DNA from: Gemmatimonadota bacterium
GTDB lineage: Bacteria; Gemmatimonadota; Gemmatimonadetes; Gemmatimonadales; Gemmatimonadaceae
Assembly: GCA_040389905.1 (NCBI GenBank)
Contig: JAZJZK010000014.1
Span: 96,001 to 160,000 of the forward strand
Reading direction: 5' to 3'
DNA: 64,000 nt
Below are positions 18,001 through 21,000 of the stretch, one piece after another. Position 1 is the first letter of the stretch. Each line of letters starts with the position of its first letter. Position numbers: made by a program.

Positions 18001-21000
18001 CGCCGGCACATTGAACGCGGATTGAGCGGATGGAAAAGAAGAACGCTGATTAATCGCTCGAGATCCACTCTGGATACGCGCGCCGCGTTCGCAGGACGGA
18101 ATCCTCCGCGCGGTAGCCGGGCCGGCGAAAGAGCAACGCATGCATGAAGCCATTCATCTCGCCGATCATCTCCGTGTGGAGAATACGATTGGCGGGATTC
18201 GGATGGAGGAGGATTTCAATCTGCGTGTCGCGATAGCGAAGGAATTCCCCCAGCGAATCGGCGGTGAGCGCGTAGGACGCTTGCAGGTCCGCGAGCATGC
18301 GATGCGAGGCGCGCCACGTCCCGCCCGAGTCTGACACGACCTTCTTGCCGTCGAGCATGATCTCGCGGTCGTCGTACGCAAGAGAGACCAACGTGTGCTC
18401 CGGCGCGCGACGCAGCCATTCCATGATCGCCCGCCCGTGTCGCGCTTCGTAGCTGTAGTTGCTGTCGAGAAACGCGATACGCTCGAGCCAATCAGGCAGC
18501 GACTGCTGCCCATCGATGAAGCCCCACGCGAACGAACCTCCACCGCTGTGGCCCGTGAGTGTCACCGCGAGACGCTCTGGATTGCCAATTTCAGCGCGTA
18601 GCTGGTCGACAATCGACACGATTCGTGGATTCGCGCTCTCGTACCCGTGCCGGCTTCGCCACTCGGGCCAACTCTTGCGGTCGGCCTCGAGGTAGACGAT
18701 GATCGCCTGACTCAGCCCCCGGGCGCGCAGCGCGCGGGTCTGCGCGCCGATGTGCTGGATGTCGTACCGCCAGCCGACGCCGTCGGCCAACAGGCGTCCC
18801 ATCGTTTCAGCCGTGGAGTTGCCGTTGGGGAGTGCGTAGAGAATCAGATCGACGCGCTGTCGTCCATCCAACTGCGATGGCGCGACAATCGTTGCCGTGA
18901 CGCCCGGGTCGAACTGAATGACACGGACGCGTTCACCAAATTGCTCGGCCGGAGTGAACCCGGACAACTCGAGTGCGCTTGGTGGCGGCGCGCACGCAGC
19001 GAGCGTCAGGGTGATTGCCACCACGGGAAGCAAAGAAGCGAAAGAAGTACGCATAGGAAGAAGATATGCGCCGCAACTACGCTCGCTCGGGGTGACATGT
19101 CCAAAAGGATGCCGAGGGCTCGAAACGAGCACCGATTCGCTCCGCCATTGTTCGATCGGCCGCTGAGCTACCCACGACGATGGAATGTGTCAGCGACACA
19201 CCGCGCTGCTTCGCTAACTCGAGCACGGAGCCGGGTATCGGTTTGCGACACCAGCACGCCGGCGGACCGGCGTCGTGGGGACAACAGGCGGCGCCAGAAT
19301 CGATTCCGAGTAGCGTTTGCAGTCGTGCAACGCACGCGTCCACCTCCTCGCGCGTCGTCACACCGCGCGAAACCTGCGGCCGCCAGGCGTGCACGAAGAG
19401 CAGCCAACCGTCGTCGGAATACCGGCGGAGCACCGCGCACCGGTCTTCGTCAATTTTCACATCTGCCGCGCGCAGCACCGGATCGACGGTACCCACCAGA
19501 TCGTCGAAATCGAAGATCAACCCCGGCGTTCCCGTGCTTCCGCCCGTGCGAACGAACGTGTGCTCCTCGATTGAGACAAACCCTTCGTCGAGCGCTGGCG
19601 GCTCGAGTATCCGCTCATAGCGAAACTGTGCGTCCGGCGAGAGATAGCGCGTGTCCGCCTTCCCGAGCGCGCGAATATCCTCTGGTGTCGGAAGGCCGCC
19701 GTGTACGTCGAGCATTCGCAGGATGCTGTTGATCTGTGCATTCGGGACGTCCGTCGCCATCCAGATGCAGCGCGCCGGCACACCACGCGCCCAGGCCGTC
19801 TCGACGATCTCATTCCGTGAGGCGCGGGTTGGATACGTGTTGTCGAGCACCACGCGGCGACTCCCACCTGCGAGCAACGAATCGAGGCGCGGTGCGAGAT
19901 CGGCAAGTGACCCACCCAGCGCGTCGCGATTGAGCCGCGCATAGCCGGCCCCTTCGAGATCGCGAGCGAAGACCGTCTTCCCCGCCCCAGGGCTTCCCAT
20001 CACGATCACGACATCACCCTCCGCGTCGTCCGCTGGTCGCCGCTCGACGCGCGGAATGCGGAGCAGGCGGCCGGAGAACTCCGCGTCGAGCGCATGGCAG
20101 TCTTCGTCATCGAGTTCGATGCCGAGCGCGCGAGCCAGCGATGTCGCCGTCTCGACCCGACTCGCTCCAGGAATCGGCACGACACCGTCTCCGAAGGTCA
20201 TGAGCCACGCGAGTACCACCTCCTCCTTCGATGCCGCATGCTTGCCTGCGACGCGTGTCACGACGGCATTCTTGCCGAGACGCTTGATCCGATCGCCACC
20301 CAACGGCCGATGGGCGATCACTCGTATACCGTTGTCTCGGCAGTATTCTGCGACGCCGTTCCGCAGATTCTCGGCGTCGAGCGGCGAGAGACTCACCTGT
20401 ACCGCGTCGACCTCCGTGACCGACTGCGCGGCTTTGATTTGCGTCACCGTGACGTTGCACAGTCCGACCGCGCGTATTTTTCCCTCTTCCCGCAACCGGG
20501 CAAGTGCGCGCACGCTGGTCTCGATCTGGGTTTTCGGATCGACCGCGTGGAGCTGATAGAGGTCGATCACATCCACACCGAGCGCTCGGCGGCTCGCCTC
20601 GCAGGCATCCCGGATGTGTGTTGCACGGCCATCGGGAACCCATGAACCGTTGGGGCGCCGCATCCCACCCTTGGTCGCCACCGTGATCCGCGCCCGCTCG
20701 CCCACCCAGCCATCGAGCGCACGTGCGATCACGCGCTCGTTGTGTCCGACGTCGGCTTCGGTGTGACCGTAGGCGTTCGCGGTGTCGAGCAGCGTCGCGC
20801 CGGCATCGAGCGCCGCGCGAATAACGGCGACCGCATTGTCATCGTCGCGCGTTGCGGCCGTCGACAGCCGCATGCACCCAAGCCCGATCGTTCGACCCAT
20901 CGATGACAGTTGTCTGTGGGTCGAGCGTTCGTCAAGCCGGCTGGAGCGCCCCGGCTTCGATGACCCGAATGAATTCGGAAACGAGCGCTTCGTCCATCCG

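Follow-up and report, generated by a model that had tools for sequence, protein, structure and literature searches.

Gene and domain architecture

The window, a stretch of 64,000 nucleotides from a Gemmatimonadota bacterium (contig JAZJZK010000014.1), contains the minus-strand gene g02029, whose open frame runs from an ATG at 20900 to a stop codon at 19077-19079 and encodes 607 residues. A second candidate start further upstream, an ATG at 21014, would overlap with the preceding gene. In run X1, a 25-kb Logan contig agreed with window positions 18758-22200 without a single difference or gap; this agreement is not independent, because run X1 is probably the source sample. Pfam assigned Aldo_ket_red to residues 5-273 (E 1e-55) and AAA_33 to residues 297-384 (E 1.6e-8), and a PDB sequence search returned the mouse PNKP kinase (E 3e-14). 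Residues 460-593 matched HAD-IIIA, histidinol-phosphatase and GmhB models of NCBIfam, every one below its cut-off.

Table 1. Positions of the fusion gene, its domains and its motifs in the window
Feature	Position	Strand	Evidence
Whole gene P0001, reductase-kinase-HAD fusion, 607 aa	19077..20900	-	open frame, model and Logan contig
Aldo-keto reductase domain, residues 5-273, AKR13/PdxI-like fold, tetrad D39 Y44 K77 H118 intact	20082..20888	-	
PNKP-type P-loop polynucleotide 5'-OH kinase domain (predicted), residues 295-448	19557..20018	-	
Walker A, residues 302-309	19974..19997	-	K308 invariant, 161/161
N324-R325-D326, equivalents of mouse PNKP Arg395 and general base Asp396	19923..19931	-	
HAD-IIIA (GmhB/PNK3P-type) domain, residues 460-593, probable pseudo-phosphatase	19122..19523	-	
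HAD motif I, D464-F-D466, present in the 607-aa protein	19503..19511	-	
Cys/His metal motif C540-x-H542...C549-W-C551-R552-K553-P	19233..19283	-	ligands invariant in 115/115 eroded relatives

The AlphaFold2 model (pLDDT 96.5, pTM 0.92) matched AKR13B2 (Z 33.3), PdxI (Z 31.6) and GmhB (Z 18.8); for the kinase, the matches were a Mucorales RNA/DNA kinase (Z 17.0) and the PNKP kinase (Z 16.7, 35% identity). The three-domain fusion in one open frame and the likeness of its middle part to mammalian PNKP, both proposed in an earlier note, are thus borne out. In the model, the C-terminal tails of several solved reductases superpose on kinase residues of about 361-368 and 432-439, which hints that the kinase may be seated on the active-site face of the reductase. 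A complex prediction for the reductase and the kinase-HAD part with NADP scored 0.01, which speaks neither for nor against this arrangement.

Kinase and reductase

The kinase domain contains Walker A, the Arg-Asp general-base motif, the DNT motif and the lid Arg. As the note had stated for Walker A and the kinase motifs, conservation is strict: K308, R325, D326, D353 and R395 are invariant in 161/161 non-redundant rows. The invariant residues correspond to mouse PNKP Arg395, Asp396 and Thr423, and the position of Lys483 is occupied by Arg or Lys in 85 of 111 sequences. In a search of the PDB with the family profile, all kinase matches were polynucleotide kinases, led by mouse PNKP (E 5e-33) and followed by T4, bacterial and Mucorales kinases (E 1e-10 to 1e-2). 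By analogy with T4 Pnk, the Arg that precedes the catalytic Asp indicates an acceptor with a 3'-phosphodiester. These residues argue strongly for a PNKP-type kinase that phosphorylates 5'-OH ends.

Mammalian PNKP (1yj5, 3zvl, 3u7e; TIGR01663) shares with the protein the catalytic and acceptor residues of the kinase and the C-terminal tail, and with its phosphatase-intact relatives also the phosphatase flap. It differs in that the order is reversed, the HAD domain of the fusion following the kinase, and in that the reductase takes the place of FHA. Furthermore, the 607-aa protein has a GmhB-type Cys/His metal site and an eroded phosphatase, and the positions aligned with the duplex-binding residues Arg403, Arg432 and Trp401 are not conserved in the family. 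The whole protein scored 65.4 bits with TIGR01663, against a cut-off of 502.8. T4 Pnkp (PseT), bacterial Pnkp/Pnkp1 and the Mucorales RNA 5'-kinase (1ltq, 4xrp, 4gp7, 9drz, 9d8a) have the P-loop 5'-OH kinase fold in common with it, and its kinase-then-HAD order is that of T4 Pnkp. In contrast to this group, the HAD domain is of the IIIA/GmhB type, and no RNA ligase partner occurs among the bacterial neighbours scanned. The HAD_PNKP domain of T4 Pnkp (PF25109) gave no match at E 0.01, and phrog_505 reached E 0.28.

The reductase scored 189 bits with PF00248 (cut-off 24) and retains the Asp-Tyr-Lys-His tetrad in 107-108 of 108 sequences, in line with the conserved catalytic positions reported before. 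It shares this tetrad and the TIM-barrel with AKR13B2 (8hnq), PdxI (8te8) and perakine reductase (3v0u), but it is fused and only 29-34% identical to such enzymes. R11 occurs in 82/87 and H197 in 75/87 fused reductases, whereas both are missing from all 14 nearest standalone relatives (0/14 each). Its charge is slightly more basic than that of the standalone kin (+0.5 versus -5.6). The closest solved relatives are enzymes for small molecules, and PRK10376, which we take to be the YdbC/PdxI pyridoxal reductase family, scored 112 against a cut-off of 280. Aldo-keto reductases are not known to take nucleic acids as substrates; for the fused domain we infer an action on nucleic-acid ends.

The HAD domain

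The HAD domain is GmhB-like and has a Cys-rich metal motif, as had been noted. With GmhB and the N-terminal phosphatase of HisB (2gmw, 3l8h, 2fpr) it shares the capless fold, the CxH...CxC motif, DxD and the motif III Lys (K553). Unlike in these enzymes, motif II (S/T-N-Q) and motif IV (G-D-x-x-x-D) are broken, and all scores stay under the family cut-offs (43.3 versus 84.15 for TIGR01656). The earlier description of an eroded first aspartate motif is wrong: D464 and D466 are invariant in 120/120 close rows. Lost instead are the G-T following DxD, the S/T-N of motif II (now A505-W506) and, in motif IV, the first Asp (now S578). The Zn-type metal site is kept and invariant. Judged by these replacements, the domain is probably a dead phosphatase in the lineage of the 607-aa protein, which would therefore be bifunctional. 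A GmhB function was rejected on account of the scores below cut-off and of a separate canonical phosphatase above cut-off in 4/4 Gemmatimonadota carriers.

The phosphatase is fully intact in four-domain Myxococcota proteins and in standalone kinase-phosphatases of large phages, and these relatives also match the mouse PNKP phosphatase flap (E 2e-10). A first tree was partly circular, as HAD columns were included; the kinase-only tree, which is the one to use, gave 4 changes versus 39.9 after shuffling. Since both trees are unrooted, the direction of HAD erosion rests on outgroup logic (GmhB and PNKP are intact).

Distribution of the family

The protein had been described as one "of Gemmatimonadota", which is misleading. 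Only 4 of 301 genomes of the phylum carry it, 55 of the best 80 GTDB loci (the other 25 being from Gemmatimonadota) belong to other phyla, and the fusion was found in at least seven further phylum-level groups. The range outside the phylum, which the note had left unmeasured, gives no support to a phylum restriction, and specificity for Gemmatimonadota is ruled out by rarity within and wide occurrence elsewhere. The commonest source was the Myxococcota sample (32/301), and one cultured carrier is Enhygromyxa salina (L070). The claim that the fusion to the reductase is conserved holds: all three domains lie in one frame at 73/80 GTDB loci, with a frame break at 6/80 and no reductase at 1/80 (L063), and proteins about 40% identical from eight phylum-level groups have retained the fusion. 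One of the four copies in Gemmatimonadota genomes is frame-broken.

The N-terminal domain of the four-domain relatives resembles XRE/Cro helix-turn-helix proteins in Atlas matches of 0.80-0.82, which are a lead only; the helical layout agrees. Neither Pfam nor PDB profiles gave a match to it, PHROG gave no clear one, and it was absent from the fold-search results, which the reductase dominated. Plasmids yielded matches to the HAD part only, GenBank phages two unannotated huge-phage records, and the sequencing runs listed no RNA dataset with the family. ESM Atlas clusters of Bacillariophyta (98 members) and Haptophyta (58) combine the same three families, namely reductase, AAA_33 kinase and PNK3P, in one protein. 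Unlike the bacterial fusion, these algal proteins are eukaryotic, and their lengths of 919 and 625 aa exceed its own; they were compared by family content and are uncharacterised as far as searched. Among proteins longer than 916 aa, the search for algal fusion sequences retrieved only one Symbiodinium concatenation. A full-text literature search, whose scope excluded most subscription papers, found no paper on a reductase-kinase-HAD fusion. As far as this search reaches, the PNKP-like clade of environmental bacteria and large phages, with its conserved pseudo-phosphatase, is undescribed.

Genomic context

Signalling genes lie upstream of g02029 and an unknown protein downstream; no repair gene adjoins it or any of the 25 Gemmatimonadota GTDB loci, one of which has a ligase two genes off (L061). 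For these loci the earlier statement that neighbours give no hint is correct. It fails family-wide, because bacterial relatives repeatedly adjoin DNA-repair genes. An ATP-dependent ligase overlaps the fusion gene at L196 and L280, and a LigD polymerase lies 10-21 bp off, downstream at seven Solirubrobacterales-type loci and upstream at L075 and L296. A primase-polymerase-like domain is fused at L188 and encoded directly downstream at L186, L191 and L194. Further neighbours are Fpg/Nei (L203), AlkZ (L102, L120, L220), SRAP (L108) and a divergent MPG (L115).

Among tight same-strand neighbours, a subset chosen post hoc, repair genes amount to about 8/80 versus 2/150 among distal genes (p 0.004), 150 out of 614 distal control genes having been scanned. 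The values are 6/101 for same-strand adjacent genes (p 0.05) and 7/192 for all adjacent genes (p 0.16); in a metagenome replicate, 1/22 new tight neighbours was a repair gene (p 0.34). About 90% of the tight neighbours are unrelated to repair. No SOS-box enrichment was detected in 125 upstream regions with five SOS/PafBC-type boxes and spaced palindromes. Nfo is present in 5/5 eroded-type genomes tested and Xth in only 3/5; the presence of Nfo says little, because Nfo is common. The phage relatives lack the reductase and are set among RNA-repair genes.

A putative role in strand-break repair

The earlier proposal of a nucleic-acid end-healing enzyme is partly supported; its phylum restriction and its description of the phosphatase defect are not. 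The end-healing reading is strengthened by the invariance of the acceptor-site residues, the PNKP flap, the RNA-repair context in phages and the neighbouring repair genes. Our preferred explanation, a good possibility that we hold tentatively, is that the fusion heals C5'-oxidised DNA strand breaks, in which a 5'-aldehyde faces a 3'-phosphate. The NADPH-dependent reductase would convert the nucleoside 5'-aldehyde into a 5'-OH, which the PNKP-type kinase, as its residues strongly suggest, would then phosphorylate. In relatives with an intact phosphatase, the HAD domain would take off the 3'-phosphate. In the lineage of the 607-aa protein it would be a Zn-stabilised pseudo-phosphatase, and AP endonucleases or the LigD phosphoesterase may perform the 3'-phosphate step. 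A DNA ligase would seal the break, and the primase-polymerase may join in where a gap remains.

Such lesions are documented: neocarzinostatin produces mostly breaks with 3'-phosphate and 5'-aldehyde, which borohydride reduces to 5'-OH (PMC3950721), and C5' is the most exposed position, with a lesion that persists for days (PMC12564780). In our weighing, the invariance of kinase and tetrad, R11/H197, the repair neighbours, the algal clusters and the lesion chemistry were counted in favour of C5' healing. Counted against it were the repair-free Gemmatimonadota loci, the lost duplex-binding residues, the phage RNA context, the SOS null result, the only slightly more basic charge and the small-molecule kin of the reductase, and the weak enrichment outside the post hoc subset.

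The kinase and neighbour evidence would equally suit a kinase that phosphorylates DNA 5' ends in base-excision or end-joining repair. The reductase would then not supply the kinase substrate but remove other aldehydes at or near the break (3'-unsaturated aldehyde, 5'-deoxyribose phosphate, abasic sites or released sugar fragments) and so prevent cross-linking. Fpg, AlkZ, MPG, SRAP, UDG and Xth neighbours suggest abasic-site chemistry, and small molecules are the usual guests of reductase pockets. Yet reduction of a 3'-unsaturated aldehyde, 5'-deoxyribose phosphate or abasic site makes no 5'-OH, so that an invariant reductase and 5'-kinase with a decaying phosphatase would go unexplained; we regard this role as unlikely. 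An enzyme that heals the ends of tRNA or rRNA damaged by nucleases or by depurination, and that descends from the phage kinase-phosphatases or is shared with them, would fit the domain order of T4 Pnkp and the best structural kinase match, a tRNA-splicing kinase acting on RNA and DNA. T4-type Pnkp, RNA ligase or Tpt1 lies within 5 kb at 9 of the 14 distinct phage loci scanned. It is nevertheless improbable: RNA ligase, RtcB and Hen1 are absent among the bacterial neighbours scanned, and five phage loci already have a separate T4-type Pnkp, so that the phage relative probably does something else there.

The reductase fold, closest to AKR13B2 and PdxI, and a HAD domain like GmhB/HisB, enzymes of small phosphates, would suit salvage or repair of a small molecule such as vitamin B6 (pyridoxal reductase, kinase and phosphatase) or nicotinamide riboside. 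In one phage group (L121) the kinase-phosphatase lies between nicotinate phosphoribosyltransferase and PRPP synthetase, and the helix-turn-helix-like N-terminal domain would then presumably be a NadR-like regulator. This is distinctly improbable, given that the PNKP-type tail, together with the invariant Arg that precedes the catalytic Asp, points to an acceptor with a 3'-phosphodiester, that PRK10376 scores below cut-off and that no B6 or NAD genes are adjacent in bacteria. The patchy and rare presence, the random neighbours in most genomes and the frame-broken quarter of the phylum's copies could also reflect a chance fusion whose parts do not work together, or a GmhB-type heptose-bisphosphate phosphatase that is redundant. 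Retention across eight phylum-level groups, the fusion-specific R11 and H197 and the separate canonical phosphatase in all four Gemmatimonadota carriers make this very improbable.

For healing of C5'-oxidised ends, a wider form is possible, if rather doubtful: the family and the algal PNKP-reductase proteins, each independently, may reverse such breaks directly, a DNA-terminus reductase passing the 5'-OH on to the kinase docked with it. According to a 2012 review, the resolution of 5'-aldehyde ends at enediyne breaks is essentially unknown (PMC3825254), and a 2025 review gives only non-specific long-patch excision for the long-lived, common 5'-aldehyde radical lesion (PMC12564780); neither names a dedicated enzyme for C5'-oxidised ends. 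PNKP seemingly has no role in bacterial base-excision repair, according to a 2020 review (PMC7356350). Direct reversal, if true, would allow the break to be ligated without nucleotide loss and would add a new chemistry to DNA repair. Among prokaryotic relatives active in bacterial DNA repair, the kinase-phosphatase core would then stand nearest to eukaryotic PNKP. An action of the reductase on DNA ends would be new among enzyme activities, and the protein would then be of use as a reagent. The family makes both 5'-aldehyde resolution and a bacterial role of PNKP testable in one coupled assay.

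Domain composition and conserved residues of the fusion protein

The minus-strand frame of the fusion gene codes for 607 residues and is present, letter for letter, in a separately assembled contig, which probably stems from the source sample. The earlier note had described a fusion of a reductase, a PNKP-like kinase, and a HAD domain, and all three were recovered by Pfam, by HAD-IIIA models, and by the fold (see the table). The best solved relative of the kinase part is mouse PNKP (E 3e-14). An AlphaFold2 model is confident along its whole length (pLDDT 96.5, pTM 0.92) and matches the structures of AKR13B2 (Z 33.3, rmsd 1.8, 258 residues aligned), GmhB (Z 18.8, rmsd 2.5, 151 aligned), a Mucorales kinase (Z 17.0, rmsd 3.0, 144 aligned), and the PNKP kinase (Z 16.7, rmsd 2.7, 144 aligned).

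Features of the fusion protein, its locus, and related loci
Feature	Location	Strand	Remark
Fusion gene	19077-20900	-	
Aldo-keto reductase	residues 5-273		Pfam
AAA_33 kinase	residues 297-384		Pfam
HAD-IIIA	residues 460-593		matches to models, all below cut-offs
Histidine kinase, double receiver, hybrid kinase, HD-GYP regulator	20932-26550	-	directly upstream of fusion, same strand
Protein of ~335 aa	18050-19057	-	directly downstream of fusion
ORF of 1323 aa	26870-30841	-	Thr/Pro/Ser-rich, no Pfam match
Repeat of ~40 bp	17999-18040		REP-like
Phage island: nicotinate phosphoribosyltransferase, kinase-phosphatase, PRPP synthetase, PARP-domain protein	L121:3829-9717		
Conserved 1066-1072 aa protein	L186:7691-10897, L191:8477-11692, L194:1629-4826		Walker-A-like motif

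The reductase tetrad D39, Y44, K77, and H118 is conserved in 107-108 of 108 alignment rows. R11 and H197 occur in 82 and 75, respectively, of 87 fused reductase domains versus none of the 14 nearest standalone reductases; by analogy with aldose reductase, both would lie at the cofactor and substrate rim. In the kinase, K308, R325, D326, D353, and R395 are conserved in all 161 non-redundant rows. Aligned to mouse PNKP, the conserved residues include the equivalents of Arg395, Thr423, and Asp396, the last being described as the general base (PMC2764422). The equivalent of Lys483 is Arg or Lys in 85/111 cases. For Arg403, Arg432, and Trp401, which are reported to bind the duplex in the mouse enzyme (PMC2764422), no conservation was found at the aligned positions of the family. 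The tails of several solved reductases align, as judged by residue ranges, near kinase residues 361-368 and 432-439 of the model, which may be an indirect hint of channelling between the domains.

Intact and eroded HAD domains

The HAD domain divides the family into 46 rows with all four motifs intact, a group defined by the presence of these motifs themselves, and 115 eroded rows, which include the fusion protein. A tree calculated from the kinase columns alone separates the two forms almost cleanly (4 changes versus 39.9 after shuffling). Of the 115 eroded rows, 41 retain the first Asp and 66 the second; 64 have the motif III Lys, with Pro in its place in 43, and 6 the motif IV Asp. In 105 rows, Trp has taken the place of the Asn of motif II. 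C540, H542, C549, C551, and R552 are conserved throughout the eroded rows. The sequence pattern is that expected of a pseudo-phosphatase which has been kept for a structural or binding role. In the fusion protein, the first aspartate motif, previously thought to be eroded, is not the site of the damage: DxD and the Lys are present in it and in the 119 rows closest to it, which instead carry A505-W506 and S, A, or T at position 578.

Intact forms were found in Myxococcota and phages. A four-domain form with an additional N-terminal domain of ~170 aa is encoded in 15 of 35 Myxococcota regions; as a lead only, this domain resembles an XRE-type helix-turn-helix. The Myxococcota genomes G472, G497, G312, and G576 hold two copies each. 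In the first three, one copy is an intact four-domain and the other an eroded three-domain form, and this coexistence suggests distinct roles.

A standalone kinase-phosphatase of ~310 aa is encoded at 16 of 19 viral loci, on contigs of up to 499 kb. Alignments of its phosphatase reach across the metal site with GmhB (E 1e-14) and, with mouse PNKP, across the flap that follows motif I (E 2e-10). Because of this alignment across the flap, the core is PNKP-like in both halves; its domain order is shared with T4 Pnkp. Ahead of an intact kinase-phosphatase, P0259 has a WD40 propeller in place of the reductase, and P0263 an uncharacterised 200-aa domain.

Distribution of the fusion

With the kinase-HAD part as query and up to seven candidates scored per genome, full matches were found in 4/301 genomes of the window's phylum (among the 301, the unpublished G057 and G097 count only in the denominator), all four in the family of the window; another 102/301 gave a HAD-only match. 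A frame break interrupts one of the four copies, and all four carriers possess a separate canonical phosphatase above the cut-off. The best 80 of at least 564 confirmed GTDB loci, a number that includes plain GmhB, belong by record title to Gemmatimonadota (25), Actinomycetota (25), Acidobacteriota (22), Myxococcota (3), Dormibacterota (2), and Krumholzibacteriota, Planctomycetota, and Proteobacteria (1 each). The reported fusion in a single frame holds for 73 of these 80, but six are split and one lacks the reductase. Samples that count the central genome gave 32/301 around a Myxococcota carrier, 10/251 in the class of a Solirubrobacteraceae genome, and 1/301 around an Acidobacteriota carrier. 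Of 1.84 billion protein representatives, 295 score below 1e-30; the best 150 of these comprise 119 proteins with three or more domains, 30 kinase-HAD proteins, many of them fragments, and one reductase-kinase. With 55 of the best 80 GTDB loci in other phyla, the fusion is not a Gemmatimonadota marker, but an accessory gene with a patchy distribution among environmental bacteria.

In the Atlas, Myxococcota are the commonest group in three clusters. The fusion protein also retrieved a 98-member cluster, most commonly Bacillariophyta (score 0.91), all members of which combine reductase, PNK3P, and AAA_33, and, as a lead only, a 58-member Haptophyta cluster (0.87).

Genomic neighbourhood

The fusion gene starts 31 bp after the HD-GYP response regulator and ends 19 bp before a protein without assigned function, for which Pfam and NCBIfam gave no match and PHROG no clear one. 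This context is not common to relatives, and the signalling run is not conserved beside them. The nearby repeat has ~100 BLAST matches genome-wide, often as inverted pairs 130-180 bp apart, and shows very high read depth.

The bulk of the bacterial neighbours is unrelated. That neighbours give no hint, as the earlier note stated, remains correct for the 25 Gemmatimonadota loci among the best 80 GTDB loci, none of which has an adjacent repair gene; elsewhere, DNA-repair genes adjoin the fusion in separate lineages. ATP-dependent ligase genes, whose products are 50% identical, overlap it stop to start downstream at L196 and upstream at L280. A LigD polymerase domain lies 10-21 bp downstream, followed by Xth, at six Solirubrobacterales GTDB loci and L217, and 10-21 bp upstream at L075 and L296. 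Further neighbours are Fpg/Nei (L203), an AlkZ-like glycosylase (L102, L120, L220), SRAP (L108), and a divergent MPG (L115).

Compared to 150 of 614 distinct distal genes, including two DNA ligases, repair genes make up 6/56 same-strand neighbours within 60 bp (p 0.006), a subset picked post hoc, 6/101 of all same-strand neighbours (p 0.05), and 7/192 of all adjacent ones (p 0.16). Eighty metagenome loci added 1/22 new tight neighbours (p 0.34 alone). Pooling by hand gave about 8/80 (p 0.004), or 7/79 (p 0.009) when the AlkZ cases count as a single event. The signal looks real but is modest.

A different primase-polymerase-like domain, excluded from these counts, is fused at L188 and encoded directly after the fusion at L186, L191, and L194; it matches PHROG 9765 (E 3e-12 and 8e-10) and nothing in Pfam. 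In this Myxococcota operon with an intact fusion, it is followed by the gene of the 1066-1072 aa protein, which has neither a Pfam nor a PDB match. At L186, genes for an AddAB-like pair of helicase and nuclease are located upstream in divergent orientation.

Discussion

Reductase and 5'-kinase are the conserved pair of the family. We propose as substrate a C5'-oxidised break, one lesion that needs precisely a reductase and then a 5'-kinase in series. Such oxidation leaves a nucleoside 5'-aldehyde and, at the other end of the break, a 3'-phosphate. Most neocarzinostatin lesions are described as breaks of this type, and borohydride converts the 5'-aldehyde to 5'-OH (PMC3950721). C5' is given as the most exposed position, with a lesion half-life of days and non-specific long-patch repair as the only route listed there (PMC12564780); how such ends get resolved is called essentially unknown (PMC3825254). 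On such a break, the reductase would convert the aldehyde to 5'-OH, and the kinase would then phosphorylate it. Intact forms would perform all three healing steps in one protein; with eroded forms, removal of the 3'-phosphate would fall to AP endonucleases, after which neighbouring ligases would seal the break. Nfo and Xth have 3'-phosphatase activity; Nfo is present in 5/5 and Xth in 3/5 genomes examined.

That the fusion heals C5'-oxidised DNA breaks in this way is a tentative but quite possible reading. A DNA kinase whose reductase serves other aldehydes is somewhat doubtful. Among 14 distinct phage loci scanned, 9 have a gene for Tpt1, an RNA ligase, or a T4-type Pnkp within 5 kb. A function in RNA repair is unlikely. 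One phage group of the kinase-phosphatase sits among NAD-salvage genes, and islands of this kind, with RNA-repair and NAD-salvage genes, have been described for jumbo phages (PMC7824862). A role in B6 or NAD salvage is distinctly unlikely. Domains without any coupled function are highly improbable.

PNKP itself seems, according to one account, to have no role in bacterial base-excision repair (PMC7356350). A full-text literature search, which did not extend to a 2016 survey of RNA repair or its supplementary data, returned no account of such a protein. The fusion is PNKP-like in its predicted working, yet on the features examined it falls outside mammalian PNKP, T4 Pnkp, and GmhB. If the reductase does act on DNA ends, the fusion would be categorically new.
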